Assembly (NCBI GenBank): GCA_964194675.1
Contig: CAXMND010000064.1
Span: forward strand, 33,809-97,808
DNA: 64,000 nucleotides
DNA from: an uncultured Coxiellaceae bacterium
GTDB lineage: Bacteria; Myxococcota_A; Polyangia; Polyangiales; Houyiibacteriaceae
Direction: 5' to 3'
Numbering within the stretch: position 1 is the stretch's first letter; each line of letters opens with the position of its first letter. A program made the position numbers and the translations under genes. The notes below the pieces were generated by a model. It was given only the letters and a program-made list of their open reading frames with translations, made no database searches and was not told the origin of the DNA. Shown here in pieces: positions 3,246-49,811 of the stretch.

Positions 3246-3330
3246 CAGACAGCGTCAGCGCCAGTGTCAGCGCCAGCGCCAGTGCCAGCGCCCCCAGTGT
3301 CAGTGCCAGCGCCCGTGTCAGCGTCCATGT
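3246..3330. repeat. Period-6 tandem array, CAGYGY type (array 1)
   Basis: CAGA CAGCGT CAGCGC CAGTGT CAGCGC CAGCGC CAGTGC CAGCGC (CCC) CAGTGT CAGTGC CAGCGC CCGTGT CAGCGT CCATGT. Starts 13 nt after the 5'-nucleotidase stop and is intergenic. Confidence 0.9.
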
Positions 3331-3348
3331 GATCATTCTTGGGTCGCC

Positions 3349-3423
3349 GTGATTTCCTTTCTGAGCGGCTCGGCCCCCCCTCCCGTTTGTGAGGGGACCC
3401 GATCCACTCAGAAAGGAAATCAC
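3349..3423 (+). promoter_or_regulatory. 75-nt rod-like leader hairpin sequestering the SD of the first 4HB gene
   Basis: A perfect 17-bp outer stem pairs GTGATTTCCTTTCTGAG (3349-3365) with CTCAGAAAGGAAATCAC (3407-3423). An inner 7-bp helix with one mismatch pairs GGCTCGG with CCGATCC. The apical stem is CCCCTC(8 nt)GAGGGG (3377-3396). The 3' arm contains the AAAGGAAAT Shine-Dalgarno region and ends 2 nt before the ATG at 3426. Confidence 0.75.
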
Positions 3424-3425
3424 TC

Positions 3426-3752
3426 ATGGGACTCATCGTTCAACAGAAAGCACTTCAGGCAGCGAGGGGGCTTCAGCCTCTTCTGCCCATCATCAGGAAG
3501 CGCGACAAGGACCTCTTCGACCAGGTTCGGAGGGCTATGAATAGCGTCGTTCTCAATATTGCCGAGGCTGATGGAAATGACTCGGGGACGGCGAGAGCTC
3601 GCTTTGCGACTGCGTGTGGCTCAGCCAAGGAAGTCCGTGTGGGGCTCCAGCTTGCCGCAGCCTACGGCTACATCGGCCAAACCCGATTGGCGGAAGTGGA
3701 CATCGCGCTCGATGAGGTCTGCGCGATGTCCTGGAGGCTGTCGGGCCGTTAG
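3426..3752 (+). CDS. Four-helix-bundle protein (23S rRNA intervening-sequence protein / Avd-like family)
   Basis: 108 aa. The core DQVRRAMNSVVLNIAEADGNDSGTARARFATACGSAKEVRVGLQLA matches the pattern I know for the PF05635/TIGR02436-type 4HB family. The SD is inside the upstream hairpin. Confidence 0.8.
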   Translation: MGLIVQQKALQAARGLQPLLPIIRKRDKDLFDQVRRAMNSVVLNIAEADGNDSGTARARFATACGSAKEVRVGLQLAAAYGYIGQTRLAEVDIALDEVCAMSWRLSGR

Positions 3753-4081
3753 CCCCTCCGAGCCAAGCACCACGTAATGGCACACACCTCGTCGAGTTTC
3801 TCGTCGAGGTGGGTCGCCGTCTGTGCCTCGATGTACCCCCAGTCGCTTGCCACATCGAGTGCCGCCCGAACTTCCTTCGCGGACCCACACGCGGTGGCAA
3901 AGCGCGCCCGCGCATTCCCCGCATCACTCCCCCGAGCTTCCGCGATATTGAGGACCACACTCTGCGCAGCCCTCTTGAGCTGGTCTGCAAGCACCCGATC
4001 TCGTCCCTGCACCACCCGGAGGAGCGGAGCGAGCTCCCGCACAACCTTTCGGGCTCGGATGTAAACGTTAGTGGATTGCAT
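3749..4081 (-). CDS. Four-helix-bundle protein, paralog of the adjacent gene
   Basis: 110 aa. The core DQLKRAAQSVVLNIAEARGSDAGNARARFATACGSAKEVRAALDVA is nearly identical to its neighbour. AAGGAG lies 6 nt before the ATG. Its stop codon overlaps the stop of the + strand gene (TTAG at 3749-3752). Confidence 0.8.
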   Translation of the reverse strand: MQSTNVYIRARKVVRELAPLLRVVQGRDRVLADQLKRAAQSVVLNIAEARGSDAGNARARFATACGSAKEVRAALDVASDWGYIEAQTATHLDEKLDEVCAITWCLARRG

Positions 4082-4087
4082 TTTGTA

Positions 4088-4153
4088 CTCCTTGATTTGG
4101 GTTTGGGCCCCGTTGGCCTCACCCCGCTGTGGTCACAAACCCAAATCAAGGAG
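4088..4153 (-). promoter_or_regulatory. 66-nt leader hairpin sequestering the SD of the second 4HB gene
   Basis: A perfect 18-bp stem pairs CTCCTTGATTTGGGTTTG (4088-4105) with CAAACCCAAATCAAGGAG (4136-4153), with a 30-nt loop. On the minus-strand mRNA the 3' arm carries AAGGAG followed by TACAAAATG. Confidence 0.75.
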
Positions 4154-4156
4154 CGC

Positions 4157-4252
4157 CAGCGCCAGCGCCAGCGCCAGCGCCAGCGCCAGTGCCAGCGCCA
4201 GTGCCAGCGCCAGCGCCAGTGCCAGCGCCAGTGCCAGCGCCAGCGCCAGTGC
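4157..4252. repeat. Period-6 tandem array, CAGYGC type, 16 perfect units (array 2)
   Basis: (CAGCGC)x5, then two copies of the 30-nt block CAGTGC CAGCGC CAGTGC CAGCGC CAGCGC (4187-4216 and 4217-4246), then CAGTGC. Verified against the AS- and PA/PV-repeat translations in the ORF track. Confidence 0.95.
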
Positions 4253-4338
4253 CGGGCGCGGGTCCTTCAGGTGTTTTTTTTGTTCCCACGAGCCCGCTCT
4301 TGTCTATACTGCTGTCGCTAACGGAAGAGGAGCGCGAC

Positions 4339-4629
4339 ATGGCCAAAGCAGTAACGAAGAAGCGAACCACCAAGAAGGCCGCGAAGAAGCGAGCCGCGCC
4401 GAAGAAGGCCGCCAAGAAACGCGCGAGTAGCGCCGCTAAGCGCGCGAGAGCTGAAGTGGACGCATTGAGGAAGAGGGCCACCAAAGAGCTCGCCGCTCTC
4501 AGGAAGAAGCTCGACAAGGCAAGGCGGGACGCAAAGAAAGAAACGGCTGCCCTCAAAAAGAAGCTCACCGCCGCAACAAAGACGCTTCAAAAGAAAACAA
4601 AGAAAAAGCGACCCGCCAAGAAGAAGTAG
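4339..4629 (+). CDS. Lys/Ala-rich histone H1-like nucleoid-associated protein
   Basis: MAKAVTKKRTTKKAAKKRAAPKKAAKKRASS...KKTKKKRPAKKK. 96 aa, with KKAA-type basic repeats flanking a coiled-coil-like core (AEVDALRKRATKELAALRKKLDKARRDAKKE). GGAAGAGGAG lies 6-15 nt before the ATG. The upstream part of track ORF 4129..4629 is just the hexamer array read as PAPAPV. Confidence 0.6.
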   Translation: MAKAVTKKRTTKKAAKKRAAPKKAAKKRASSAAKRARAEVDALRKRATKELAALRKKLDKARRDAKKETAALKKKLTAATKTLQKKTKKKRPAKKK

Positions 4630-4719
4630 ACGCGCGGTAACGTCCAGCGACTGCGCCAGCGTGAACTCCAGGGGGGATGCTTGCGAAGCGGCACACAGGT
4701 GCTAAGTCGGGCTCCCCTT

Positions 4720-4792
4720 GGGGCGGTAGCTCAGCTGGGAGAGCACTACACTGGCAGTGTAGGGGTCCGGGGTTCGATCCCCCGTCGCTCCA
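4720..4792 (+). tRNA. tRNA-Ala (anticodon GGC)
   Basis: Hand-folded cloverleaf. The acceptor GGGGCGG/TCGCTCC includes the G3:U70 alanine identity pair. D arm GCTC-AGCTGGGA-GAGC. Anticodon arm CTACA-CTGGCAG-TGTAG, with GGC at 4753-4755. T arm CGGGG-TTCGATC-CCCCG. Discriminator A. CCA is not encoded (the sequence continues CCCC). Confidence 0.93.
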
Positions 4793-4803
4793 CCCCATGA
4801 AAC

Positions 4804-4836
4804 CGACGCTTTGCGTCGTCCGGGGGGCAAACCCCC
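4804..4836 (+). terminator. Two tandem GC hairpins just 3' of the tRNA (possible terminator or processing signal)
   Basis: CGACGC-TTT-GCGTCG (4804-4818) and GGGGGG-CAAA-CCCCC (4822-4836). No U-tract follows. Confidence 0.3.
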
Positions 4837-4840
4837 ACGT

Positions 4841-4943
4841 CCACTGGCACTGGCGCTGACACTGGCGCTGGCACTGACACTGGCATTGGCACTGGCGCTG
4901 GAACTGGCACTGACACTGGCGCTGACGCTGGCGCTGAGCACTG
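4841..4943. repeat. Period-6 tandem array, reverse-complement form RCRCTG, 17 units (array 3)
   Basis: CCACTG GCACTG GCGCTG ACACTG GCGCTG GCACTG ACACTG GCATTG GCACTG GCGCTG GAACTG GCACTG ACACTG GCGCTG ACGCTG GCGCTG AGCACTG. Opposite orientation to arrays 1 and 2. Confidence 0.95.
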
Positions 4944-4987
4944 GGACCGTCATCCCAAATTTTGACGTTTCAGGTTGGGGCAGCGAA

Positions 4988-6490
4988 ATGGAGGCGATGC
5001 GCACCGCTGTCCTATGCGCCCTCCTTCTCTCCTCGGCCTGCAGTGCCTATGACGACCTTCGGCTTCTCGATATCGAAGCGATCGAACCGCCGCAAATCGA
5101 GCCAGGAGGGACGCTCCGCATTCACGGAGAGGGCTTTCCGCTTGGGCGCTCCGCTGTCGTGAGCCTTCACGGAACCCTCCATCGACCGGGTGTCCCTGCG
5201 AGCCCCCTCGATGTACGCCTCCGTGCGGAGGTCCAGACCGAGACGCTCATCGAAGTCCCGATCGATGCCGAGTTCATGCGTTCGATCGGTGGTCGCGCCA
5301 CTTTGGAGGGGAGTCTACGGCTCATCTTTCGAGCCGCGAACGATCGCCGCGACGTGTTCGCTGAGCAGCCCGTTCTCGTTGACTTCCTACCCGACACCTC
5401 TGTTCAGCTTCGCACCGAGCCGAACGTGTACGAGCCGGTTCAATCTATCGACGGGCAGCACTTTGGTGTTGCGCTTTCGCGCGAAGAGTCTGGTACGATC
5501 GGTGTCCGCGTTGAGTCCGTCGATCCGCACAGCTTCGCGGCGACACAAGGAGTGCGTCCGGGCGACACCCTGGTTGGCCTCGATGGAATGCGCCTCTACA
5601 GTTGGCGCGATTTCTTCCCCGACCCGAGCCAAACCGAGTCGAGCGTGTGGGTCGCACGACCCGGCTTAGAGGGAGTGCATATGCTGCGCTGGTGGCACGA
5701 GGCGACCGAGCGTCGGGCCGATCCGCTGACGTTCGGCGTTTTGCTGCTCTTTGGGCTCCTGCTCGGGTGGCTTTCCCCGATGGCGCTCCGGCTCGGAAAG
5801 GCACCATCGGCCTCGATCGAGGTCTGGCTGACTCGACTGAGCCTCGTTCTCGTGTTCGTCGCGGCGCTCTTTTGTGCGTCCGCCCTGCAGTGGACGACGA
5901 TCTGGATCCTGGTCCTCGGATCGCTGGCCGCGCTCTTTTCGCTCGCCGCGCGAGACCGGGTTGCCATCACGAGCTTCGCGTTTGCCGTCCTCTCGACCCT
6001 CACGGTCATGCTCCTGGCTCGTACCGCAAGCATCGCGTCCATCGTAGCGGCCCAAGATGGGACGGTGCTCGATTGGTATCTTTTTCGGACGCCGGCGTCG
6101 ACCCTCGCCTTTGGTAGCTATCTCTACGCGCTCGGTGAGCTCGGCGGTCAGAACCGCCTCTCGGCCTCCCTCTATGCGTCCGCCGCCGCGGTTCTCGGAG
6201 CGGCGCTCTTCCTCGGTGGTTGGGAAACCACAGAGCCCGTTTTGGGCGTTTCACTGTTGGTTGCCAAGGCCGGCGCCATACTTCTAGGTGCGCGCTTCTT
6301 TCGGATGAGCCGCCAAGTCGCCATCTCGGCGTTGGGCCTCGGGCTCTCGCTTGCCCTCCTCGGAGCGTGGGCGGGTACCGACGTGCTGCTCTCCTATTGG
6401 AGCGCGCTCGCCGCGGGCTGCGTCGGGGCGGTGCTAGTCCGAGCAATCGTGCCGGCTTTGCACCGACCGTCGGTTCCTGCGGTCGCCTAG
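4988..6490 (+). CDS. Membrane lipoprotein with extracytoplasmic IPT-like and PDZ-like regions and a polytopic C-terminal domain
   Basis: I take the start at ATG 4988 (MEAMRTAVLCALLLSSAC, lipobox-like LSSAC). The upstream 59 codons of the track ORF are the hexamer array read as LALALT. QIEPGGTLRIHGEGFPLG looks IPT/TIG-like, and QGVRPGDTLVGLDGMRLYSWRDF looks PDZ-like. The last ~270 aa are multi-TM. Function unknown. Confidence 0.5.
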   Translation: MEAMRTAVLCALLLSSACSAYDDLRLLDIEAIEPPQIEPGGTLRIHGEGFPLGRSAVVSLHGTLHRPGVPASPLDVRLRAEVQTETLIEVPIDAEFMRSIGGRATLEGSLRLIFRAANDRRDVFAEQPVLVDFLPDTSVQLRTEPNVYEPVQSIDGQHFGVALSREESGTIGVRVESVDPHSFAATQGVRPGDTLVGLDGMRLYSWRDFFPDPSQTESSVWVARPGLEGVHMLRWWHEATERRADPLTFGVLLLFGLLLGWLSPMALRLGKAPSASIEVWLTRLSLVLVFVAALFCASALQWTTIWILVLGSLAALFSLAARDRVAITSFAFAVLSTLTVMLLARTASIASIVAAQDGTVLDWYLFRTPASTLAFGSYLYALGELGGQNRLSASLYASAAAVLGAALFLGGWETTEPVLGVSLLVAKAGAILLGARFFRMSRQVAISALGLGLSLALLGAWAGTDVLLSYWSALAAGCVGAVLVRAIVPALHRPSVPAVA

Positions 6491-6515
6491 CAGCGGAACC
6501 GTCCTAAGATCTTCC

Positions 6516-6890
6516 CTACGTCTGCGCTAAGAAATCTCGCAAGAGGGTCCGCTGCTGTTCCGATGGCGCCAAGAACTGCAATCCGGCAGTGACCGCGTCC
6601 TGGCCCGCGCGCTTCGTCCATCGCACCGATGCTGCGCATTCGAACGGCGCGCGGTCGGGATCTTCGATCCCATCTTGCGTCAAGAAGAAGCTCACCGTTA
6701 CCACTTCACCGACCGTCAGGGCCCTCGAGAACAACACCGCGGCACCTCCGGTGCTCAGATTCTGGGTCTCCGCGTGGAGGGTTTCGCCCGAGAGCGTGAG
6801 TTCGCAGGAGATCCGGATCGGGTAGCGCTCGTCCTCCCGCTTCTGAGGGTGAGTCTCCATCACTTCCTCATGATGAAGAAGACGGGCCAC
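6516..6890 (-). CDS. PilZ domain protein (c-di-GMP binding type)
   Basis: The RxxxR motif (RYPIR) and N-x-S-x-x-G motif (NLSTGG) sit at the canonical spacing. 124 aa, single domain. Confidence 0.75.
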   Translation of the reverse strand: MARLLHHEEVMETHPQKREDERYPIRISCELTLSGETLHAETQNLSTGGAAVLFSRALTVGEVVTVSFFLTQDGIEDPDRAPFECAASVRWTKRAGQDAVTAGLQFLAPSEQQRTLLRDFLAQT

Positions 6891-6923
6891 GTCGCAAAAT
6901 TGTGTGCACTACTCCGAACCGGT

Positions 6924-7475
6924 TTATTGGACAGATCGCCGTGCTCGACTCTGCGAGCGGACCGTGTTGGCTTCTCCGCGGAGCTCGGGATCGTTGGGCG
7001 TATCGCGCAATAGGTTCGCGTAGATGGCCAGCGAGCGCTTGTAATGGCCCTGGTCCGCCAAGATGCGGGCCATCGTGCGCGTCGGGAACGGCTCTTCGAA
7101 TGTGAAGTACGAGCCCGAAAAGACCCCTGCTGGCGGGCGTGAAGGGGGCGCCGAGCTTGGCGTTTTCGGAGGCGGTGCGGCGCCCGAAGGCGCGTCGGAG
7201 GGGGGCGCGAAGTGCTTCGTGTCGGCCTGCGCGGACTCGCCTTCCGGCTCGGCGTCCGAAAGCTGTTCGTCGGGCGTTGCGGTGGTTTGGAGAGCCCACT
7301 TGGCGAAGCCCAGCACGCGACCGAGGAACCCTTCCGGCGGAGGCCCCCCGACCCGGTCGCGGATCACGTGTATCAGCTGAGCCCGGCTCAATGCGTACGT
7401 GTCGTTCACGCCCAGCCGCTCCGCCTCCGCGCGAAGCTCAGGTGTGGTCAGATTGTAGAGCTTCGTCAGATCCAT
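6924..7475 (-). CDS. Hypothetical protein with Rho_N/SAP-like N-terminus, Pro-rich linker and TPR-like C-terminus
   Basis: MDLTKLYNLTTPELRAEAERLGVNDTYALSRAQLIHVI resembles the Rho N-terminal helix-hairpin motif. The C-terminus reads ARILADQGHYKRSLAIYANLL. It overlaps the ribF stop by 10 nt, so it is probably co-transcribed. Confidence 0.45.
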   Translation of the reverse strand: MDLTKLYNLTTPELRAEAERLGVNDTYALSRAQLIHVIRDRVGGPPPEGFLGRVLGFAKWALQTTATPDEQLSDAEPEGESAQADTKHFAPPSDAPSGAAPPPKTPSSAPPSRPPAGVFSGSYFTFEEPFPTRTMARILADQGHYKRSLAIYANLLRDTPNDPELRGEANTVRSQSRARRSVQ

Positions 7476-8395
7476 CGAGCCAGTTCCAGGTCCATCTCTT
7501 CTAGCGCGTTCTTCGCCTGCTCGCAGTCACGATCGATCTGATCGCGCAATTCCTGCAAACCGCCGAACCTATGCTCACCGCGAATGCGCGAGACGAAACC
7601 GACGCGGAGTCTCCTGCCGTAGAGATTCCCCTCGAAGTTGAAGAAATGTGGCTCGACCGAGCGGCCCGCGTCGAACGTTGGGCGCACGCCGAGGTTCGCG
7701 ACCCCATGGAGTAAGGGGGCATCCGCCTCGTCGAGCACCCGGGCGACGACCGAATAAACCCCATCTTTGGGCAGTTGCAGTGGTTCGACATCGAGATTCG
7801 CGGTGGGGAAGCCGATTTCTCGACCGCGCTGGTCTCCTCGGACGACTGTGCCGGCTACCTCGTGGACGCGGGTCATCATCAAGGCGGCGTCCTCTACGTT
7901 TCCGTCTTCCTTGAGGATCCGGCGGATACGAGTCGAAGAGATGGACTCACCCTCGTGCATGACGGGTTCGACCACCTCGACTGTGAATCCGACGCGCTCC
8001 CCCCATTCGCGCAGGGTGACGATGTTCCCGGATCGTTTGTGCCCAAAGTGAAAATCCGGTCCAATGACGACGCCCTTTGCGCAACACGCGTCCAGTAGCA
8101 CGCGCTCGACGAAGGCGTCTGGGGTGGTTTTCGCGAAGTCTGCATCGAACGGCAAAACAACCACATCATCACACCCCGCCCCCTTCAATAAGTCGACACG
8201 GCGAGGCATACCCGTGAGCAAGACCGGTGAGCGGTCGGGTGCCAGGATCGAGGTCGGATGCGGGTCGAAGCACATCGCTAGGGTTTGCCAACCATGCTCG
8301 TCGGCCGTGCGTTTTGCGGCGTCGATCAGCGCCCTGTGACCAAGGTGTACGCCATCGTGGTTGCCAGGGGTAACGACAGAAGGTGCTCGGCGCAT
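7466..8395 (-). CDS. ribF: Bifunctional riboflavin kinase / FMN adenylyltransferase
   Basis: VVTPGNHDGVHLGHRALI is the nucleotidyltransferase motif. The C-terminal riboflavin kinase region reads GFPTANL...GVANLGVRPTF. 309 aa. Confidence 0.95.
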   Translation of the reverse strand: MRRAPSVVTPGNHDGVHLGHRALIDAAKRTADEHGWQTLAMCFDPHPTSILAPDRSPVLLTGMPRRVDLLKGAGCDDVVVLPFDADFAKTTPDAFVERVLLDACCAKGVVIGPDFHFGHKRSGNIVTLREWGERVGFTVEVVEPVMHEGESISSTRIRRILKEDGNVEDAALMMTRVHEVAGTVVRGDQRGREIGFPTANLDVEPLQLPKDGVYSVVARVLDEADAPLLHGVANLGVRPTFDAGRSVEPHFFNFEGNLYGRRLRVGFVSRIRGEHRFGGLQELRDQIDRDCEQAKNALEEMDLELARWI

Positions 8396-8518
8396 CGGTT
8401 CAGGGGGGCGTGGAGCGGTGAACGTGCTCCGCCTTCAAGCACCTACAGCGCCCTCGGGGGCACTTCAACTCGAATGCGGTCGATACGCACGTTGGTGACG
8501 TTCGCCTTTCGGTGGGGT

Positions 8519-8797
8519 ATGGTTGAAAACATGAGGAATTCGAAGGGGAGGTCGAATCCCAAGGAAGAGGCTCCTTTTGAGGAAGTCATGGAGCGCCTCC
8601 AGACCGTTGTGGAGCAGCTCGAAGAGGGAGATTTGCCTCTCGAGCAGTCTTTGGCGATCTTTGAGGAGGGGGTTCGTTTGTCTCGCGCCGGTGCGAAACG
8701 ACTCGATGAGGCCGAGCGTAGGGTAGAGGAGCTCCTAGCCGCCGGAGACGAATTGCAGACCAACCCTCTGGAAGAAAGCGAAGCGGGGGAAGCATGA
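8519..8797 (+). CDS. xseB: Exodeoxyribonuclease VII small subunit
   Basis: PFEEVMERLQTVVEQLEEGDLPLEQSLAIFEEGVRLSRAGAKRLDEAERRVEEL is a typical XseB. The start is ATG 8519 or 8531. The longer track ORF from 8285 runs antisense over the ribF 5' end and is rejected. Confidence 0.85.
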   Translation: MVENMRNSKGRSNPKEEAPFEEVMERLQTVVEQLEEGDLPLEQSLAIFEEGVRLSRAGAKRLDEAERRVEELLAAGDELQTNPLEESEAGEA

Positions 8798-9960
8798 GCC
8801 AGGTCCTCACAGTACCGACACATTTCAACGATATTGGAGAGCTCTCCGAGGGCTTTCTCGACCGCGTCGAACAAGACACGCTCATTCTCTATGGGCCTGT
8901 TCCCTACGAAGACGGGTCCGACATCGACTTTGTGGTTTTGCTCGCGGATGGCACTACGGCCCTCGAAGGCAGCGGCCGGGTCCGTGCGGCGGTCGATGGT
9001 GGCGCCGAACGTGTTCCCGAGACTCGCTACGACGTGGTCCTAGAGGCGCTCGAGCTGGACGGTCGCTATGAAGTCGTCTTCGAGCGTCTCGTGATGGAGC
9101 GGCAGGCGGTCTCGGATCGTGCACCTGCCGAAGACGACGCGCCCGCCACGGGCGACATGGAGGCGACGCCCCCGGACGAAACAGACGACGGGAACGAAGC
9201 CGAAGAAGCGGCGGCCCCCGAGGTCAAGATCGCCGCCGAGGAAGTCTACTCCATACCCCCCGACGAAATCTTGTCCGTCCCGCCGGGCGACCTTGAAGAC
9301 GTGGAGTCTGCCGAAGAAGCCGAAGTTGCCGAAGAGGACGACGACGAGATGGAAATGAAGATGTCCGTCGAAGAGGCATCGGTCGACGACGCCACCGATT
9401 GGGACAAAGAATCGCCGGTCGAGCTTTCGATGGACGCACAAGCCACGCTCGAGAAGTACGCAGGCTCACACGAGGAGCAGGGTCCCGTCGGAGAGGCCTA
9501 CGACGAGGCCACTGCTTCCGAAGGGACATTCGAAGGAGCGTTGCAGGCTGAGTTCGATGAGGACGGCGAGCCGCTCGTGGCCGCTGAGCCCAATGTCGGC
9601 GCTCCGGTTCCAAAGCCTTCGATGGCCGCGCCGCCGGAGGTGCCCCCAGCACCAGCTGGTCTCGACTTCGTTCCGCCCCCAGACGGGCTCACGCGGCCTT
9701 CGCGAGCCAGCGCAAACGAAGACCTGATCGCCAGCTATGAAACGGCCGGGGAGGAAGAGAACTCGGGTCTTTTCGAGTACGAAGAAGGGCTCCCGATTCC
9801 ATCACGGCCGCCGCTCCCCGACCTAGACCCAGCGCGCCGCGTCGCCGCGGTTGAAGCAAACGATGTCGAAGACGTCGAAGACTCGGAGCCACCCGAGGCC
9901 GATGACGACTACGAGGAAATTCGACTCAGCGACCTTGCTGAAAGCGCCGAAGAGGGGTGA
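8794..9960 (+). CDS. Hyper-acidic low-complexity protein with a ~110-aa structured N-terminal domain
   Basis: Its ATG overlaps the xseB stop (ATGA). 388 aa, with long D/E/P/A-rich tracts after residue ~110. No family recognised. Confidence 0.5.
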   Translation: MSQVLTVPTHFNDIGELSEGFLDRVEQDTLILYGPVPYEDGSDIDFVVLLADGTTALEGSGRVRAAVDGGAERVPETRYDVVLEALELDGRYEVVFERLVMERQAVSDRAPAEDDAPATGDMEATPPDETDDGNEAEEAAAPEVKIAAEEVYSIPPDEILSVPPGDLEDVESAEEAEVAEEDDDEMEMKMSVEEASVDDATDWDKESPVELSMDAQATLEKYAGSHEEQGPVGEAYDEATASEGTFEGALQAEFDEDGEPLVAAEPNVGAPVPKPSMAAPPEVPPAPAGLDFVPPPDGLTRPSRASANEDLIASYETAGEEENSGLFEYEEGLPIPSRPPLPDLDPARRVAAVEANDVEDVEDSEPPEADDDYEEIRLSDLAESAEEG

Positions 9961-9966
9961 CGTCTC

Positions 9967-10281
9967 ATGAGACCCTTCGTTGCCGCCATCCTGTGCGCTT
10001 TGAGCCTACTGGTCACGACACATGCGAGCGCTGATGCGGTGGTCCACGTCATCGTACGCAATATCGACGAGCAGCCGGTCGACGGCCTCGTCAAGCTCAG
10101 GCCACTCGGTGACGGCAAGAGCTTCAACTGCTCAACCGTCAAGGGTGCCTGCACGATGCGCTCGGTCCCGGGCGGCAGCTACATCGTCACCTTCCAGCCC
10201 AGCAAGGGGAGCTCCCCCACCCCCCGCAAGGTCATGATTCCGCCTGACGGCGAAGCAGACCTTCATATCTCGGCGAAATAG
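9967..10281 (+). CDS. Small secreted protein, carboxypeptidase-regulatory-like beta-sandwich
   Basis: Signal peptide MRPFVAAILCALSLLVTTHASA. VVHVIVRNIDEQPVDGLVKL...SVPGGSYIVTF fits the CarboxypepD_reg pattern. Confidence 0.5.
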   Translation: MRPFVAAILCALSLLVTTHASADAVVHVIVRNIDEQPVDGLVKLRPLGDGKSFNCSTVKGACTMRSVPGGSYIVTFQPSKGSSPTPRKVMIPPDGEADLHISAK

Positions 10282-10346
10282 CGCCGGAGTTGGACCCGGG
10301 CGCCCTCAGAATGTAATCATTTCGAGCGGGGAAGCTCGCGAAGGGG

Positions 10347-13945: not shown

Positions 13946-13952
13946 TGTTCCC

Positions 13953-16747: not shown

Positions 16748-18325
16748 ATGGACACTATTTGGATAGTCCTGCTCACAGTGATGGCGATCCTCGGCGCGCC
16801 GCTGTTCACTATCTTCGGCGCTGCGGCGATGCTCCTTTTCCTGGCGCTTCCCGACACCAGCATCACCGGCACCGCCAACGACGTCTTCAGCGAGAAATTC
16901 GCCGACTCGCCGCTCCTGGTCACGATTCCGTTGTTCACTTTCGCCGGCTACCTCATGGCCGAGAGCGGGACGCCTCAACGTCTCGTGAAGGTCTCGCGCG
17001 CGTGGCTCGGATGGATGCCTGGTGGTTTGGCGATGGTGTGCTTGGTCGCGTCCGCTTTCTTCACAACCTTCACCGGCGGCAGCGGCATCACGATCGTTGC
17101 GATCGGCGGTCTTCTCTTTCCGGCGCTTCTGTCCGACAAGTACAACGAGAACTTCTCCCTCGGCCTGGTCACGACCGGCGGTTCGCTAGGGCTCCTGTTC
17201 CCGCCAAGCATCCCGATGATCCTCTACGGCGTCGTCGCCGGCGTCATGATCGAGAAGATCTTCTTGGCCGGCATGATCCCAGGCATCATCGTGGTGGCCG
17301 CCCTCGGCGTCTATAGCGCGATCATCGGCGTCAAGCAGAAGATGCCCCGGACGCCCTTCGCGTGGAAAGAGGCGTTTTCCTCTTTTTGGGAGGCGAAATG
17401 GGAGGCGGCGCTTCCCGTGGGTCTCCTTGGCGGGATGTACAGCGGCTTGCTCCGTATTCACGAGGCTGCGGCCTTTACCGCGATCTACGTCCTCATCATC
17501 GAGGTGTGGGTCTACCGCGACGTGAGCTTCAGGAGGGACCTTCCGCGGATCATCCGAGAAGCGATGACTCTCGTCGGCGCGATCCTGATCATTCTGTCGA
17601 CCGCCATCGGATTTACCGCGTTCCTGATTCAGGCGCGGGTGCCTATGCTGATCCTCGAAAGCATGGAGGCCCTCATCAGTACGCAGCTGATGTTCCTCGT
17701 CGCCCTCAACTTCTTCTTGATCGGCGTCGGGATGTTGATGGACATCTTCTCCGCAATCGTGGTCGTGGTTCCGCTGATCGTTCCGATCGCCTTGAGCTTT
17801 GGCGTTGACCCGTACCATCTCGGTATCATCTTTCTGCTCAACCTCGAGATCGGCTACCTGACCCCGCCAGTCGGCCTGAATCTCTTCATCGCGAGCTTCC
17901 GGTTCAACAAGCCGATCACTCAGCTCTACAGATCCGTCTTGCCCTTCATCGGCCTGCTCGTCATCTGCCTCATCCTCGTCACCTACATTCCGGTCCTCTC
18001 GACCTGGCTCCCGAGCCTCATCGAGGACCAAGGAATCAGCCTCGACGCCCCAGGAGGCGACGAGGACGTGGAGGGTTTCGATCTTGACGCTCTCGAAGAA
18101 GGCGGCGATGAGTTCGATCTCGACGACCTCGAAGAAGACGACGACGACTGGGATCCGTCCGAAGACGATGACGAGTGGGCAGGCGACGACGACGACGACG
18201 ATTGGGATCCCGCCGCCGACGACGACGTGTGGGAAGAAAGGACGCCCAAAGATGCGGGCAAAGAGCCGGACTCGGGGGCGGCCGAAGCCGAAGAGAAGCC
18301 GGAGCCGGACGAGGGCAGTCCCTAG
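16748..18325 (+). CDS. dctM: TRAP transporter large permease (DctM family) with ~100-aa hyper-acidic C-terminal tail
   Basis: Typical DctM body (...LVTIPLFTFAGYLMAESG..., ...GGSGITIVAIGGLLFPAL..., ...YLTPPVGLNLF...). It is followed by DEDVEGFDLDALEEGGDEFDLDDLEEDDDDWDPSEDDDEWAGDDDDDDWDPAADDDVWEE... Confidence 0.9.
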   Translation: MDTIWIVLLTVMAILGAPLFTIFGAAAMLLFLALPDTSITGTANDVFSEKFADSPLLVTIPLFTFAGYLMAESGTPQRLVKVSRAWLGWMPGGLAMVCLVASAFFTTFTGGSGITIVAIGGLLFPALLSDKYNENFSLGLVTTGGSLGLLFPPSIPMILYGVVAGVMIEKIFLAGMIPGIIVVAALGVYSAIIGVKQKMPRTPFAWKEAFSSFWEAKWEAALPVGLLGGMYSGLLRIHEAAAFTAIYVLIIEVWVYRDVSFRRDLPRIIREAMTLVGAILIILSTAIGFTAFLIQARVPMLILESMEALISTQLMFLVALNFFLIGVGMLMDIFSAIVVVVPLIVPIALSFGVDPYHLGIIFLLNLEIGYLTPPVGLNLFIASFRFNKPITQLYRSVLPFIGLLVICLILVTYIPVLSTWLPSLIEDQGISLDAPGGDEDVEGFDLDALEEGGDEFDLDDLEEDDDDWDPSEDDDEWAGDDDDDDWDPAADDDVWEERTPKDAGKEPDSGAAEAEEKPEPDEGSP

Positions 18326-18329
18326 CCGG

Positions 18330-18479
18330 CAGCGGCAGTGACAGCGCCAGCGTCAGTGACACTGACAGTGTCAGCGACAGCGCCAGTGACAGCGGCAGTG
18401 TCAGTGTCGGTGCCAGTGTCGGTGCCAGTGTCGGTGTTTGTGATCGAGCACGAGCACGAGTACGACCACGACCACGACT
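18330..18479. repeat. Composite period-6 array, 25 units in one phase (array 4)
   Basis: There are 19 CAGYGN-type units: CAGCGG CAGTGA CAGCGC CAGCGT CAGTGA CACTGA CAGTGT CAGCGA CAGCGC CAGTGA CAGCGG CAGTGT CAGTGT CGGTGC CAGTGT CGGTGC CAGTGT CGGTGT TTGTGA. Six ACGASC-type units follow: TCGAGC ACGAGC ACGAGT ACGACC ACGACC ACGACT. The array starts 5 nt after the dctM stop. Confidence 0.95.
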
Positions 18480-41192: not shown

Positions 41193-41207
41193 GCGGGAAG
41201 GGTAGGA

Positions 41208-41237
41208 CAGCGACAGCGACAGTGCCAGTGTCATGCT
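41208..41237. repeat. Short period-6 array, CAGYGN type (array 5)
   Basis: CAGCGA CAGCGA CAGTGC CAGTGT CATGCT. It lies in the divergent lipoprotein/GST intergenic region. Confidence 0.7.
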
Positions 41238-43673: not shown

Positions 43674-43716
43674 GCACGGAGCATACGCGAGCAGCGGTGC
43701 ATCTTGCTAGCGGGAG

Positions 43717-43770
43717 GCACTGGCATCGACACCGGCACGGGCGCTGGCGCTGGGACGGGCGCTGTCGGCG
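43717..43770. repeat. Degenerate period-6 array, reverse form (array 6)
   Basis: GCACTG GCATCG ACACCG GCACGG GCGCTG GCGCTG GGACGG GCGCTG TCGGCG. It lies between the prs stop and the amidase start. Confidence 0.65.
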
Positions 43771-43773
43771 ATC

Positions 43774-44700: not shown

Positions 44701-44738
44701 CGTCGTAGCCTCATGACAACACAGGATCGATTTGCTGG

Positions 44739-45602
44739 CTAGCGCTTGGCGAGCACCTCGAGAAGAACGTCCGGAACGTCGGTTACGAGCGCATCGACCC
44801 CCAAGTCCAGCAGCTCGCGCATCTCAGGCGGGTCGTCGATCGTCCAGACATGCACTTGAATTCCGTGATGATGCGCGGCCTCGATGAACCGCGGCGTGAC
44901 GATCCGGAGGTGGCGAAAGGTGGCGGGAATCTGCAGTGCATCGAACGCGAAAGTTGCGTGCTTCCACGTACCCGAAAGAACTCGCATCCAAAACCGTAAG
45001 GCTTCGCGACGGCTTGCAGACGTCGCCACCCGGCCTTGGCTGAGCTGGCGAAACGCATTGACGGACTCATCGTGCTCCGACGCGACCAGGACCCGGTCGT
45101 AGATTCCATGGTGCACGATGAAATCCCAGAGGCGCTGCGCCATGGATGGGTCTTGGGGCTTCATATCGAGGTTGTAGCGAAGACCGGGATCGAGTGAGAG
45201 CGCCTCTTCGAGCGTCGGAATGCAAACACCGTTGTGGCGATAGGGGTGGTGGCCTCCCCGAACGAAGCGGTCGGCGGCGTCGAGTTTCTGTACCTCGGCC
45301 AGCGTGTGGTCGAGCACTTTGCCATGCCCATTGGTCGTGCGCTCGACCGTCTCATCGTGGAAACACATGAAGTGCCCATCGGCCGTTTCGCGCAGATCGG
45401 TCTCGATGTGCCAACAGCCGAGGTCGGCGGCCGATCGAAATGCTAACAGGGTGTTTTCCGGCCAGCGTCGCCCCCCGCCACGGTGCGCAAACGGGAATGG
45501 CGAAGTGGGGCCGAAATACGGGCGAGGCATCGAGGCCGACAGCATACCGCCGTTTGCCCCAACACGGGCGTAACACTTGTCACCCGTGGAGTTTCTGTGC
45601 AT
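44739..45602 (-). CDS. Glycerophosphodiester phosphodiesterase family protein
   Basis: FAHRGGGRRWPENTLLAFRSA...IETDLRETADGHFMCFHD are the GDPD catalytic motifs. The true start may be an internal Met (45545 or 45530). Confidence 0.85.
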   Translation of the reverse strand: MHRNSTGDKCYARVGANGGMLSASMPRPYFGPTSPFPFAHRGGGRRWPENTLLAFRSAADLGCWHIETDLRETADGHFMCFHDETVERTTNGHGKVLDHTLAEVQKLDAADRFVRGGHHPYRHNGVCIPTLEEALSLDPGLRYNLDMKPQDPSMAQRLWDFIVHHGIYDRVLVASEHDESVNAFRQLSQGRVATSASRREALRFWMRVLSGTWKHATFAFDALQIPATFRHLRIVTPRFIEAAHHHGIQVHVWTIDDPPEMRELLDLGVDALVTDVPDVLLEVLAKR

Positions 45603-45627
45603 CGTACACGGCCGAAAGGGCTATGAG

Positions 45628-46452
45628 ATGGCGAAGAGCTTGGCTGGAAAAGTTGCGATCATCACCGGGGGCGCTGGGGGAATTGGAAAAGCGATAGCGG
45701 AGGAGATGACCGAGCGTGGATGCTACGTCGTTCTTGCGGATATCAACGAAGAGCTTCTCCAGGCGACGGTGTCGGAACTGCGCGCAACCGGAGCCCAAAT
45801 CGATGCAAAGACGGTGGATGTTCGTGATGCGGGACAGGTGCAGAGCCTCGTCGGGGCGGCCTTTCGAGAGCTCGGTCGGGTCGACTACATGTTCAACAAC
45901 GCGGGGATCAACGTCCTGGCAGAGCTTCGGGATACTTCGCTCGAGGACTGGAACCTGCTGATCGACGTCAACCTACGCGGTGTCGTGCACGGCGTGCACG
46001 CGGCATTCCCCCTCATGTGCGAGCAGGGCTTTGGCCACATCATCAACACCGCTTCGGTTGCGGGAGTGGCACCGATCCCGGCCGAAGGCGCCTACGCTGC
46101 CACCAAGCATGCGGTGGTCGGGCTTTCGACGACGCTTCGAATCGAGGCAGCCGCGTTCGGCGTCAAGGTCAGCGTAGTATGCCCTGGTGCCGTCGACACA
46201 CCGATCCTCTACTCTTCGAAACACGTGAAGTTCGATGCTGACACGATCGTCGAGTTGTTCCCCGAGAAACCCATGCCACCACGGCGCGCCGCACAGTTGA
46301 TTCTACGCGGTATCGAACGCGGTCGCTTTTTCATCGTGATCTCTAAAACGGCAAACCTATTCTGGCGAGCGTACCGGCTCGCTCCCGAGAGCTCGCTCTC
46401 GCTCGGGCAGCTGGCAATGAAACGTATCCGGGCGATCAAGCGGGACGCGTAG
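45628..46452 (+). CDS. SDR-family oxidoreductase
   Basis: I take the start at ATG 45628. Motifs are TGGAGGIGKA (TGxxxGxG), NNAG, and the catalytic YAATKHA (YxxxK). Confidence 0.88.
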   Translation: MAKSLAGKVAIITGGAGGIGKAIAEEMTERGCYVVLADINEELLQATVSELRATGAQIDAKTVDVRDAGQVQSLVGAAFRELGRVDYMFNNAGINVLAELRDTSLEDWNLLIDVNLRGVVHGVHAAFPLMCEQGFGHIINTASVAGVAPIPAEGAYAATKHAVVGLSTTLRIEAAAFGVKVSVVCPGAVDTPILYSSKHVKFDADTIVELFPEKPMPPRRAAQLILRGIERGRFFIVISKTANLFWRAYRLAPESSLSLGQLAMKRIRAIKRDA

Positions 46453-46453
46453 C

Positions 46454-47398
46454 TCAGCGGAACTCCTGCCCAATCCCGATCACGCCAAGTGCACCCTCGT
46501 GCATCCGGAACTCTGCGGGCCCCACGCCCGGGGCCTCGCCATCGATGTCCATGTAAGCGGTGTTTGCGGTCACATCGACCTCGACGTGCTTGCCACGGAA
46601 CGTACTGACCGTGGATGACTCGATGTGGGTCCCCTTGTAGAGGCCTGCCATGACGGGGAGGCCTCGCAGCGTGGAGGTCGCGCGCATCACGATGATATCA
46701 AACTCACCGTCTGCAACTCGCGCATTCGGGGCGAACATCATGCCACCTCCTGCCCAACGTCCGTTGCACACGCACACGACACTCACGTCGTGTTCCCCTC
46801 GGTCTTCTCCGTCGATCCGCAGACGTATGTGGGCGGGCTTGTATTTGAGTTGCGCGCGCATCGTTGCCACCAAGTACTTGGAGGCCCCGCTGCGGCGGGA
46901 CTTGGACGCTGCGACGTAGCGGTCGACCAGTCCGCTCATTCCCATTGAAGTGATGTTGAGAAAGTAGCGACTCGCTCGTCCACCATCATCGTGTGCGTAC
47001 TCGACCCAACCGATGTCGATCGGAACTGGCTCTCCATCGCGAATGACTGCGCATCCGCGTCCGAGCTCGTTCGTCCCGTCGATCATCTTCCGAAAGTCAC
47101 CCCCGGTTCCGGCGTGCAAGATGCCGAGTGCAACGTCGTGGTTGCGCCCCGACTGCATGATGCCATCGACGATCTCGCTGTGTGTTCCATCGCCTCCGAA
47201 CGACACGATGGTTCGCGCGCCCCCGGCAGCTGCGTCGCGTGCAATCTCCGTCCCGTGCCCTACCGATTCAGTCAGCCGCAATGCGACCGGGCCGAGTGCC
47301 TCTTGAATTTGGGCACTGAGTGCCGGCCAATTGTTCCCCACGAAACCGTACCGTGCGGCTGGGTTTGCGATGACAAGGGTTTTTTCGGGCTCGAACAT
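46454..47398 (-). CDS. Diacylglycerol-kinase-family lipid kinase (YegS/BmrU-like)
   Basis: ...VSFGGDGTHSEIVDG... is the GGDGT motif. 314 aa. Confidence 0.85.
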   Translation of the reverse strand: MFEPEKTLVIANPAARYGFVGNNWPALSAQIQEALGPVALRLTESVGHGTEIARDAAAGGARTIVSFGGDGTHSEIVDGIMQSGRNHDVALGILHAGTGGDFRKMIDGTNELGRGCAVIRDGEPVPIDIGWVEYAHDDGGRASRYFLNITSMGMSGLVDRYVAASKSRRSGASKYLVATMRAQLKYKPAHIRLRIDGEDRGEHDVSVVCVCNGRWAGGGMMFAPNARVADGEFDIIVMRATSTLRGLPVMAGLYKGTHIESSTVSTFRGKHVEVDVTANTAYMDIDGEAPGVGPAEFRMHEGALGVIGIGQEFR

Positions 47399-47523
47399 CG
47401 TTGAAGGCCTCGTACCGCATTTCGTCTGTTTCCGGTAGACGCAACAACAGCACCCACGCCACCCCGTAAAGCGACTTCGTCGCCACGGAGCAAGGCGCCA
47501 CCCTGGAATCAGCGAATCCCGTG

Positions 47524-47542
47524 GGCGATGCGAAGCGTCGCC
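47524..47542 (-). terminator. Candidate hairpin terminator downstream of the peroxiredoxin gene
   Basis: GGCGATGC-GAA-GCGTCGCC forms 8 bp with one mismatch, 9 nt after the stop. There is no U-tract, so support is weak. Confidence 0.3.
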
Positions 47543-47551
47543 TTTACGGGG

Positions 47552-48190
47552 CTACTTGTTGGGCTGCGGTGTCATCCGCAGGTAGGGCCTGAGCTCGCGG
47601 TGCCCCTTCGGGAACTTCTGCGCGATCTCGTCTGGGTCGGTGATCGAGGGGACGATCACGACGTCGTCGCCGTCCTGCCAGTTAGCCGGCGTTGCGACCT
47701 GGTGGCTGTCCGTGAGCTGCAGGGCGTCGAGCACGCGCAAGACCTCGTCGAAATTGCGTCCGGTAGCGGGCGGGTACGTGATGGTCGCGCGAACCTTCTT
47801 GTTGGGGTCGATGAAGAACACCGATCGGACGGTCACCTTCGCGTCGGCTTCTGGGTGGATCATGTTGTAGAGCGTCGCGACCTTTTGGTTCGGGTCGGCG
47901 ACGATCGGGAAGTTCATGCGAACGTCTTGGGTGTCTTCGATGTCTTTGATCCATTCCTCGTGCGAGTCGAGCGGATCGACGCTGATGGCGAGTGCCTTGG
48001 CGCCGCGTTGCGCGAGTTTGTCCTTGAGCTTGGAGGCGACACCGAGCTCGGTCGTGCACACGGGGGTGAAATCGGCAGGGTGCGAGAAGAAGATCACCCA
48101 GCCGTCGCCTGCCCAATCGTGAAAGCGAATCGTGCCTTCCGTGGTCTCTGCTTCGAAATCCGGTGCAGTGGTTCCTAACCGTAGGCTCAT
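47552..48190 (-). CDS. 1-Cys peroxiredoxin (Prx6 type)
   Basis: MSLRLGTTAPDFEAETTEGTIRFHDW...FFSHPADFTPVCTTELG. 212 aa. Confidence 0.92.
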   Translation of the reverse strand: MSLRLGTTAPDFEAETTEGTIRFHDWAGDGWVIFFSHPADFTPVCTTELGVASKLKDKLAQRGAKALAISVDPLDSHEEWIKDIEDTQDVRMNFPIVADPNQKVATLYNMIHPEADAKVTVRSVFFIDPNKKVRATITYPPATGRNFDEVLRVLDALQLTDSHQVATPANWQDGDDVVIVPSITDPDEIAQKFPKGHRELRPYLRMTPQPNK

Positions 48191-48267
48191 TGGCTTGCTC
48201 CTTGGAGTTGGTGGGGTCTAGATAGATGGCTCCCTTTCGTGTGCCTCGTCAAGGAGGATTCGAGACA

Positions 48268-49770
48268 ATGGGGCCACTAAGCTGGTATCGAAACTCCGTG
48301 CCCGAGCTCTTCCCACGATTGGTGTCTCCCGGGTCACGTCTCGCGCTCGTCGTTGGTGACGAATCGTGGACCTACACCGAGCTCGCCGGCGCTGCTCGTT
48401 CTCACGCGGGCGCAGTCGAGCGCTTGGGGGTTCGAGCCGGTGACAGGGTTGCGGTCTGGGCCCACCCGAGTCTCAGTACGGCCGCGGCCATCCTAGGCAA
48501 TATGGCCGCAGGCACAGCTACCGTGCTCCTCAGCCCGAAGCTTGGGTCACACGAGCTCGCCCACATCGTGAACGACGCTTCCCCCCAATTGGCGTTCTGC
48601 GATTCCGGCTACCCGACGCCATCCGAGGTGGACGGGATCGTCTGTCTTCGCGAGCGCTACGAAGCTTCCGAAGGGTCGCTTCGGTCTCTGGCGGTCAACG
48701 ACAGCCCAGCCCTGATTCTCTACACGTCCGGGACCACTGGACCTCCAAAAGGGGTCGTCATCACTCGCGGCAACATCGCTGCGAACCTCGATGCGCTGGC
48801 GCAGGCGTGGGAGTGGACCGAGCGCGACACTGTCGTCCACTCGCTTCCGTTGATTCACGTGCACGGGTTGGTCCTCGGCCTGTTCGGGAGCCTCCGCGTT
48901 GGGGGAGCGCTCCACTACCTACCGCGCTTTTCGCTCGATGGGATCGCCGAGGCTTTGACGGATTCGCGGCACGAGCAGACGATCCTGTTCGCGGTGCCAA
49001 CGATGTACCACCGGCTCGCCGAAGCCGCGGAGTCCGACGCTGTGCTTGCCGAAGTGTTGAAGCATCCGAGGCTTCTCATCTCCGGTTCCGCGGGCCTCCC
49101 TTCGCGCGAGCATGAGCGTATCGAGAGGTTGACCGGTCGAGGTGTTCACGAACGCTACGGGCTGACCGAGACCTTGATCAATTGCGGTGTCCCGGCATCG
49201 CACGCCCCGAGGCCCGGATTCGTGGGTCCCCCGCTTCCCGGCGTCGAGCTGGTCTTGGTAGACGATACGCGTCGGCGGATCGATGCTCACGACGACGAAA
49301 CAATAGGCGAGGTCGCGGTGCGAAGTCCCTCGGTGTTTGCGGGGTACCTCAATCGTCCCGATGCAACTGCGGCGGTATTGGACGAGGAGGGTTGGTTCTA
49401 CACGGGCGATCTTGCGACACGGGCGGAAGACGGATCGATTCGGATTCTCGGGCGGCGGAGCACCGACCTGATCAAAACCGGAGGGTACCGCGTGGGAGCC
49501 GGCGAGATCGAAGCGTGTTTGCTCAACCACCCAGCCGTCGCCGAAGTCGCAGTAGTAGGCTCACCCGACGACGATCTGGGGCAACGAATAGTAGCATTCG
49601 TGGTCATTCGTTCCGACAAGGACGTCAAACAGCTGTCGTCTCTCACCGACTTCGTCGCCGAACGCCTCAGCCCCCACAAACGTCCCCGCGACATCCAGTT
49701 CGTCAAAGAGCTTCCCCGAAACGCAATGGGCAAAGTTCAAAAGAAACAGATCCTCGCGCTCATCCCCTAG
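48268..49770 (+). CDS. AMP-dependent acyl-CoA synthetase/ligase
   Basis: LYTSGTTGPPKGV is the AMP-binding motif, with ...YGLTET... and ...TGDLA... also present. I take the start at ATG 48268, preceded by AAGGAGGA. Confidence 0.87.
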   Translation: MGPLSWYRNSVPELFPRLVSPGSRLALVVGDESWTYTELAGAARSHAGAVERLGVRAGDRVAVWAHPSLSTAAAILGNMAAGTATVLLSPKLGSHELAHIVNDASPQLAFCDSGYPTPSEVDGIVCLRERYEASEGSLRSLAVNDSPALILYTSGTTGPPKGVVITRGNIAANLDALAQAWEWTERDTVVHSLPLIHVHGLVLGLFGSLRVGGALHYLPRFSLDGIAEALTDSRHEQTILFAVPTMYHRLAEAAESDAVLAEVLKHPRLLISGSAGLPSREHERIERLTGRGVHERYGLTETLINCGVPASHAPRPGFVGPPLPGVELVLVDDTRRRIDAHDDETIGEVAVRSPSVFAGYLNRPDATAAVLDEEGWFYTGDLATRAEDGSIRILGRRSTDLIKTGGYRVGAGEIEACLLNHPAVAEVAVVGSPDDDLGQRIVAFVVIRSDKDVKQLSSLTDFVAERLSPHKRPRDIQFVKELPRNAMGKVQKKQILALIP

Positions 49771-49775
49771 CCCTA

Positions 49776-49811
49776 GTGTTCGTAGACGTGTTCGCGTTCG
49801 TGGTCGACTCG
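49776..49811. repeat. Short period-6 array of the second (GASCAC) family, reverse form (array 7)
   Basis: GTGTTC GTAGAC GTGTTC GCGTTC GTGGTC GACTCG. Its complement (GAACAC/GACCAC) matches the GAGCAC/GACCAC reading of the tail of array 4. It lies in a convergent intergenic spacer. Confidence 0.6.

Follow-up and report, generated by a model that had tools for sequence, protein, structure and literature searches.

A 64-kb stretch of DNA from an uncultured marine myxobacterium (G+C content approximately 62%), in the following called the window, contains a dispersed family of tandem arrays built of a six-nucleotide unit, two of which enclose a pair of small convergent genes. The relatives of this bacterium are labelled as metagenome-assembled genomes (MAGs) of Myxococcales, Polyangiales or Sandaracinaceae. 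Arrays were detected with Tandem Repeats Finder (TRF) and a pattern scan, and re-detected with positions 4 and 6 of the unit left free. The comparison set consisted of the window, 371 fetched loci of relatives and conspecifics (designated by L-numbers) and public assemblies.

The first array (array 1, 3234..3330, plus strand; found by TRF and pattern scan) begins directly behind the TAG stop codon of a 5'-nucleotidase-like gene (1746-3233). It is degenerate from position 3234 onwards and holds approximately 12 clean units at 3250-3324. An inner junction (TGTGATC..CTTGGGTC.CCGTGATTTCC) follows, together with a hairpin pairing the Shine-Dalgarno sequence of the next gene (3325..3425, plus strand). 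Then come two convergent genes of the four-helix-bundle family PF05635 (23S_rRNA_IVP): gene 1 (3426..3752, plus strand, 108 amino acids, Pfam E = 1.2e-13) and gene 2 (3749..4081, minus strand, 110 amino acids, E = 4.1e-17), both of which exceed the Pfam gathering cut-off and whose stop codons overlap. A second hairpin (4082..4150, minus strand), which pairs the Shine-Dalgarno sequence of gene 2 and like the first was read from the sequence, directly adjoins array 2 (4151..4252, plus strand, 17 units; TRF and pattern scan). This array has the orientation of array 1 and lies upstream of a promoter-like site of an H1-like gene. The order is array(+), hairpin, PF05635 gene, convergent PF05635 gene, hairpin, array(+), and we refer to this block as the cassette and to arrays 1 and 2 as its arms. 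No domain other than PF05635 was found in the cassette proteins, and no RAYT gene (HUH tyrosine transposase) lies between the repeats. The original prediction, an earlier reading of this DNA that described seven intergenic arrays, had missed that arrays 1 and 2 form the arms of a PF05635 cassette present in many copies. Each hairpin arm in turn consists of short tandem repeats (GATTTGG-GTTTGGG, GGTGTT-GGGTGTT; window 3349-3423 and 4082-4153, L307 1925-1995, L154 8283-8350), which vary from copy to copy while the hairpin design is constant.

The window holds a single cassette, and arrays 3 to 6 are solo. Array 3 (4841..4943, minus strand, with 16 units at 4841-4936) is located between a tRNA-Ala gene and the next gene, and a mini-array of three units (4645..4662, plus strand, found by the pattern scan) marks the left edge of an inverted segment carrying this tRNA. 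Array 4 (18330..18479, plus strand; TRF and pattern scan) consists of 18 units at 18330-18437 and a GAGCAC/GACCAC run at 18445-18477, which together fill the convergent spacer between a DctM-type permease gene and an ExbD gene. The short array 5 (41208..41237, plus strand, 4-5 units at 41208-41231) occupies a divergent spacer, and the degenerate array 6 (43717..43770, minus strand, approximately 6-9 units, about 6 of them at 43729-43764) separates two genes of the minus strand. Of the seven sites predicted earlier six are thereby retained, four of them strong and two short or degenerate. The seventh (49776..49811, no strand given) is a weak GYGTTC-like period-6 tract that TRF did not report even at a score of 30, and was rejected as a member of the family. 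Exact-protein searches with the genes adjoining arrays 5 and 6 and the seventh site gave no matches. As had been stated before, both orientations occur (arrays 1, 2, 4 and 5 on the plus strand, arrays 3 and 6 on the minus strand) and arrays tend to start near stop codons: three of the six begin 4-16 nt behind a TAG.

TRF reports a period of 6 with 7-17 copies in the window, that is, a head-to-tail unit within the 1-9 nt range of simple repeats. The predicted excess over chance is evident from 46 matches to (CAGYGY)3 with at most one mismatch, compared to 0.02 expected from shuffled sequence. The consensus over 1,606 units is CAGYGN. Position 4 is C in 43% and T in 54% of the units, with less than 4% purine; position 5 is A in only 1%; position 6 is C in 44%, T in 34%, A in 11% and G in 11.5%. 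Of the unit CAGYGY given in the original prediction the CAG-pyrimidine-G core stands, but position 6 accepts any base. The alternation of C and T applies to position 4 (96% C or T) but is not universal, as some genomes contain only CAGCGC and CAGCGT. CAG.G is close to invariant in the non-coding arrays, and together with the strict pyrimidine at position 4 this suggests that the sequence may be read out. The motif is not common outside the arrays. With these masked, CAGCGC ranks approximately 420th among the hexamers of the window, CAGTGC 2,158th and CAGTGT 3,165th, and no two-unit seed was found in the remaining sequence. The arrays were correctly described as not CRISPR-like (short palindromic repeats that are clustered and regularly interspaced): instead of repeats of 24-40 nt with unique spacers they show contiguous 6-nt units and no spacers. 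An Rfam scan of the window returned the tRNA-Ala only, with no rRNA and no other known RNA family.

Two candidate origins of the unit were rejected. The commonest codon pair GCG-CTG does not account for it, as CAGCGC/GCGCTG ranks only approximately 410-420, the T-variants are rare and seeds are lacking. Deamination following CpG or GCGC methylation, as a source of the C/T variation, predicts CAGCAC, yet A at position 5 amounts to 1% compared to 54% T at position 4.

The cassette block including its arrays was also found at L047 (between unrelated genes), L040 and L118, and L154 carries cassette and array behind the H1-like gene, turned round relative to the window. In all four loci the orientation of the arrays relative to the cassette genes is identical to that in the window. 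A scan for relatives of gene 2 yielded 79 fetched loci, all in MAGs of the same family and up to 14 of them in a single MAG. Cassettes of the family carry one or two PF05635 genes. Copies of type 2 are 69-90% identical, those of type 1 (like gene 1) 53-60%. An array lies at most 200 nt upstream of 40 out of 41 type-2 copies and at most 520 nt downstream, beyond the partner gene, of 40 out of 51; for type 1 the corresponding counts are 12 out of 13 upstream and 11 out of 17 downstream. As a background, only approximately 5% of the same sequence is within 100 nt of any array. Every one of the arrays so counted has the orientation predicted from the window, and wherever arrays occur on both sides, in the window as well as in the relatives, the arms are direct.

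The flanks of the arms differ in a characteristic manner. The inner flanks are conserved in approximately 50 copies (...CTTGTGAC..ACTTGGTCATCGTGATCTCCTTTTT on one side, CCAAACCCAAACCAAGGACAAGCGAT... on the other); the left junction motif of the window recurs in approximately 45 left arms of other genomes, and right arms in turn share the inner flank on the side of gene 2. Each copy has different outer flanks, in which no target-site duplication is visible, and the cassette ends are direct arrays, not inverted repeats as in MITEs or insertion sequences. Conserved inner and unique outer flanks identify the arrays as the termini of a repeated cassette. Such cassettes sit between protein genes and not in rRNA, and their genes are 87% identical within a genome compared to 76% between genomes. 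Homologues of gene 1 form 949 clusters in marine sediment data, many of them on contigs shorter than 1.5 kb, as would be expected if assemblies break in the arms.

Comparison of conspecific assemblies revealed a pronounced variation in array length. In three independent assemblies (L280-L282) the cassette occupies the same locus between identical flanks. One conspecific assembly has an array 1 that is longer by 45 nt, two others have its units in a different order, and array 2 comprises approximately 36-37 units in L280 and L281 compared to 17 in the window, again between the same flanks. Array 3 is identical in L280. In L284 array 4 is longer by one unit, and in L286 its GASCAC run is shorter by two. 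The length polymorphism that had been proposed as a check is thus found for arrays 1, 2 and 4. Four metagenomes show no variation in arrays 5 and 6 or in the seventh tract, nor a raised depth of array 5. Array size ranges from 3 to 41 units across the family. Among the roles offered in the original prediction, a slippage hotspot or selfish microsatellite comes nearest to these observations, as unit number differs between conspecifics with identical flanks.

Word depth in four marine metagenomes amounts to 7-27x for the unique flanks, 50-1,150x for the cassette and 500-11,000x for the arrays, which thus exceed the flanks tens- to several-hundred-fold. Metagenome contigs end in arrays and continue in many different ways. 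The units of a genome form a dialect of its own, common to its arm arrays and its solo arrays. The CAVWBW and JAHEEE genomes use CAGCGC/CAGCGT and CAGCGTT heptamers with T at position 4 near absent; another genome favors CAGTGC/CAGTGT/CAGCGA. Length variation, multiplicity, dialects, the likeness of cassette genes within a genome and the rarity of a motif that has no seeds together argue against independent slippage and for copying or exchange among arrays.

The original prediction regarded the arrays as strictly intergenic. This is true for the window, where all six accepted arrays lie outside the open reading frames (ORFs) showing coding signal on both sides, but not for the relatives, in which two genes bear arrays in frame. 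The orthologous neighborhood of the 5'-nucleotidase-like gene was fetched from 80 species. More than 20 of them have an array of 4-23 units within the orthologue of the window gene at 6924-7526 (minus strand; e.g. L121 10300-10960), flanked by conserved N- and C-terminal parts of the protein and read in the frame GYG-YCA as an Ala/Val-Pro/Ser linker. The window gene and its two closest relatives are without this array. Its product is small, with an N-terminus resembling Rho-N/SAP and a C-terminus resembling TPR. The second array-bearing gene is the orthologue of 8722-9960, in several species and in the same frame. As a period of 6 equals two codons, arrays keep the reading frame and survive inside genes. 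When family loci were chosen only by a perfect (CAGYGY)5, 15 out of 20 arrays were non-coding. By this sample the family appears strongly enriched in spacers and is tolerated in protein linkers; at the two orthologous genes of relatives coding arrays predominate. A search of relatives for the hexamers, also proposed earlier, found the same arrays in dozens of related MAGs, so that they are not confined to the window.

Spacers differ in their array content between close species. Behind the stop codon of the 5'-nucleotidase-like gene the window has the cassette with both arms, the close relative L158 a 3-unit array and L120 none; the MAGs of L120 and L158 are approximately 86-87% identical to the window species. 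Behind the H1-like gene L154 has an array with the cassette, L133, L142 and L145 have solo arrays of the same orientation, and most species have nothing. At the site of array 4, no array is found behind the permease stop in 36 relatives; the close relatives L202 (4535) and L203 (4532) carry a 20-nt hairpin, GGGGAC(A/C)GTCCCC, followed by a T run. Array 3 replaces a hairpin of the same type (GGGGACAGTCCCC) present in L158 (8170). This hairpin is rare, as 1.15 Mb of sequence contain 13 copies and the window none. Four of these copies are located 20-32 nt from an array (L070, L295, L330, L361). A rearrangement is associated with array 3 as well. The tRNA-Ala(GGC) gene (4719-4795, plus strand) and approximately 50 nt upstream of it are inverted: in all five tRNA-bearing relatives that were checked the gene is on the minus strand. 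The inverted piece is bounded by the mini-array 4645-4662 (plus strand) and array 3 (minus strand). Such an inversion is the product that would be expected of recombination between inverted arrays.

These observations are best explained if all arrays are copies of a single hypervariable hexanucleotide repeat, (CAGYGN)n, specific to this lineage of marine Polyangiales-like myxobacteria and apparently found solo more often than as cassette arms. We consider it probable, with some reserve, that the arrays are the hypervariable terminal repeats of a selfish PF05635 (IVP) cassette along with solo derivatives of these repeats, or landing pads for the cassette. They would then not represent host promoters, terminators or nucleoid-protein sites. 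Mechanistically, replication slippage and unequal exchange could alter the number of units, and the arrays of one genome may swap sequence with each other. Recombination between the two direct arms would delete the cassette and leave a solo array behind. By the reverse reaction any solo array might take up a cassette, with the orientation dictated by the array; the fixed polarity of cassette and arrays agrees with an uptake whose orientation is set by the recipient. Inverted arrays could flip the DNA between them.

Several observations weigh against this reading. Direct traces of movement, such as excised circles or empty-site recombinants, were not seen, and the joints present in Logan contigs that might represent circle or deletion junctions (e.g. 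4245 -> 3251) are indistinguishable from other array loci. All conspecific assemblies are filled at both loci tested, in two species; cassettes fixed within species would mean that they move slowly or did so only in the past. New sites, such as that of array 4, at which relatives carry a terminator hairpin, cannot acquire an array by homologous recombination. Solo arrays have no junction motif in common by which they could be recognized as scars of a cassette. Most arrays near the two sampled orthologous loci of relatives are intragenic and distant from any cassette. Where an array exceeds the read length, part of the length differences may reflect errors of assembly; the lengths stem from short-read assemblies, and no Nanopore run containing the stretch was found.

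A more specific version is that the PF05635 genes travel as an undescribed kind of cassette, whose direct-array ends are recognized or seeded by the four-helix-bundle protein, so that cassettes hop between arrays and solo arrays fill spacers and linkers. We regard this as conceivable but doubtful. The PF05635 protein is a relative of Avd, the nucleic-acid-binding protein of diversity-generating retroelements.

The arrays might alternatively be ordinary microsatellites that arise independently by slippage, with the PF05635 cassettes preferring to insert into existing arrays or persisting within them. Polymorphism in unit number is typical microsatellite behavior, and the stability of the short degenerate arrays is what would be anticipated of microsatellites. 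Arrays without cassettes and within genes are likewise accommodated, as is the sporadic occurrence of (CAGYGY)5 in Burkholderiales, Streptomyces and other phyla. The motif, however, is not a frequent hexamer and leaves no seeds outside the arrays, and an independent origin does not lead one to expect a genome dialect shared by solo and arm arrays. Chance insertion into independent arrays is also hard to square with arrays on both sides of nearly every cassette, in one fixed orientation and with conserved inner junctions. We therefore consider an independent origin unlikely.

A working role of the arrays as cis elements, either in transcription stop or insulation (for instance by Rho loading on the C-rich strand) or as a multi-site array on which a protein that binds DNA could land, for example the PF05635 proteins, is in our opinion also improbable. 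Such a role could explain why arrays frequently begin 0-16 nt behind stop codons and why two sites of the window have an array in place of the terminator-like GGGGAC.GTCCCC hairpin of close relatives. The pyrimidine at position 4 and the near-invariant CAG.G resemble a motif that is read out, and the RNAs of arrays 2 and 4 fold better than shuffled sequences. The RNAs of arrays 1 and 3, however, fold no better than shuffles and a U tract is absent. The arrays abutting gene ends show no orientation bias, with 6 in sense and 7 in antisense, nor do they prefer a frame, which agrees with the earlier statement that a promoter or terminator role is unlikely; the absence of polarity argues against a terminator-like or Rho-loading role in particular. 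Array lengths of 3-41 units that differ within a species, gain and loss between close species and the tolerance of the same arrays within ORFs are further arguments against a cis-acting function.

Three functional candidates were tried individually and rejected. A conserved RNA hairpin or intrinsic terminator was dismissed as only the purest arrays surpass shuffles and no U tract follows, and a polar Rho-type function as the orientation of arrays toward neighboring genes is unbiased. For Chi-like arrays the likeness (GCTGGCGC) is loose, the orientation is independent of GC skew in the window, and two cassettes located 75 kb apart on one contig face opposite ways.

It is very improbable that the window arrays are leftovers of coding dipeptide repeats, i.e. 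C-terminal tails or N-terminal extensions severed by new stop or start codons, or that they are translated by TAG read-through. Arrays 1 and 4 stand behind TAG stops and share the Ala/Val-Pro/Ser frame of the gene before them, the frames of arrays 3 and 5 continue without a stop into the genes that follow, and the coding arrays of relatives use the same Ala/Val-Pro/Ser frame. Against this, none of 36 permease orthologues, which terminate in acidic repeats, has such a tail or an array following its stop, and the frames of post-stop arrays across the family are distributed 3:1:2, i.e. at random. As 5 out of 6 frames of the repeat lack stop codons, open frames are uninformative. Finally, De Bruijn contigs do break at arrays and the length of array 2 differs two-fold between assemblies, but an assembly artefact of low-complexity reads is practically negligible as an explanation given that the same arrays with the same flanks recur in independent ENA, JGI, NCBI and Logan assemblies and that dozens of MAGs of relatives contain arrays, some of them on contigs as long as 0.3 to 2 Mb.

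The closest known class to the hexamer arrays is that of dispersed long-unit simple sequence repeats. Cyanobacterial short tandemly repeated repetitive (STRR) heptamers, reportedly described by Mazel and co-workers in 1990, and heptamers of Calothrix belong here. In Xanthomonas the unit GGGAATC, and in Nostoc the unit GGGGAYT, is repeated at many dispersed intergenic sites (Rehm et al. 2015, PMC4692102). Approximately 90% of the Xanthomonas repeats are intergenic and a minority lies in ORFs; they are located on average 28 nt from the end of the neighboring ORF, and their function is unknown (PMC4692102). The arrays reported here share with the Xanthomonas and Nostoc repeats the short head-to-tail unit, the many sites in both orientations, the proximity to ORF ends and the occurrence of some copies within ORFs. 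They differ in that the unit is a hexamer (two codons), which is neither G-rich nor quadruplex-forming. They are also longer, with up to 41 units compared to a preference for about 4 in Xanthomonas, and hypervariable, whereas the Xanthomonas repeats are found at conserved loci. A further difference is that the hexamer arrays are the ends of a protein-coding cassette; PMC4692102 describes no such arrangement, and the terms "intervening", "S23" and "four helix" do not occur in its text. Dispersed intergenic repeats with units of 6-9 nt have been described in a few bacteria, their origin and spread have so far been unexplained, and the near one-to-one tie to a cassette offers a testable source and route.

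A second point of comparison is provided by the repetitive extragenic palindromes (REP), the bacterial interspersed mosaic elements (BIME) and the REPIN-RAYT system, i.e. multicopy short extragenic palindromes of enterobacteria and pseudomonads, in which RAYT is a single-copy HUH transposase. Common to both is a many-copy extragenic repeat that flanks a gene and has copies just behind stop codons. Similar to REP/BIME mosaics, the hexamer arrays are combined with other spacer modules, namely the GGGGAC.GTCCCC hairpin and a palindrome of 95 nt. In contrast to REP and REPIN-RAYT the repeat is a tandem array and not a palindrome, the arms are direct and not inverted, and arrays also occur in frame within genes. 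Unlike RAYT, the flanked gene is multicopy and encodes a four-helix bundle of 108-110 amino acids with no known catalytic domain.

The PF05635 family itself leads to a third comparison. The intervening sequences (IVS) in the 23S rRNA of Coxiella and Leptospira carry an S23p/IVP ORF and end in a 28-bp inverted repeat that is cut by RNase III (Warrier et al. 2016, PMC4990558). The IVS literature also records the old idea that the ORF serves the mobility of the element (PMC4990558). Both the IVS and the cassette are small elements regarded as selfish, with a PF05635 ORF preceded by a strong stem. The cassette differs by its location outside rRNA rather than in helix 25 or 45 of a 23S rRNA gene, by ends made of direct variable hexamer arrays, by its two convergent genes and by its many copies per genome. 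Full-text literature searches on PF05635, "four helix bundle protein" and related terms returned no description of array-flanked cassettes.

The PF05635/IVP family has been without a function since its discovery in the 23S rRNA IVS, and its partnership with the repeat makes DNA or RNA binding at the array a candidate activity. It is the less likely view that IVP cassettes with array ends constitute a new kind of mobile element. If IVP cassettes did hop via their array ends, this would provide a function for a family that has been an orphan for 30 years and would account for enigmatic intergenic tandem repeats in several phyla.

Irrespective of their origin the arrays have practical consequences. 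They break short-read assemblies. In public annotation they yield false ORFs, as had been anticipated in the original prediction, and false N-terminal extensions. Public gene calls on conspecific contigs contain spurious ORFs of 76 amino acids (L280 2681-2911) and 55 amino acids (L282 2744-2911) across array 1. The call at L280 4500-6179 assigns a product of 559 amino acids to the gene after array 3; its length matches that of the window ORF 4811-6490, which reads through this array. The arrays moreover place variable dipeptide linkers into real proteins, and they appear to drive local rearrangement, for example of the inverted tRNA gene. One oddly labelled metatranscriptome contains contigs with an array-junction piece from a relative, which is weak evidence for transcription.

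Some further repetitive features were observed. The DctM-type permease (16748-18325) encoded next to array 4 has a C-terminal tail of acidic repeats (DLD-A/S-LEGDDEEL and similar), the number and sequence of which are highly variable across species (window 18000-18325, L200-L272); in the window this tail is encoded by tandem repeats of 27/54 nt at 18130-18234. A repeated module (GGGCTTCGCCCT.CGGGCTCGCGCTGCCGC), which is absent from the window, directly adjoins hexamer arrays in L013, L072, L311, L334/L118 and L347. The palindromic element mentioned above, of approximately 95 nt (CCCCGTAAAGCGACTTCGTCGCCACGG ... CCGTGGGCGATGCGAAGCGTCGCCTTTACGGGG), is located at 47455-47550 of the window between two minus-strand genes, with a metagenome depth of 40-147x compared to 12-25x for its flanks. 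Related copies of it adjoin hexamer arrays in L153, L154 and L305, and in L322, which is the same contig as L154.

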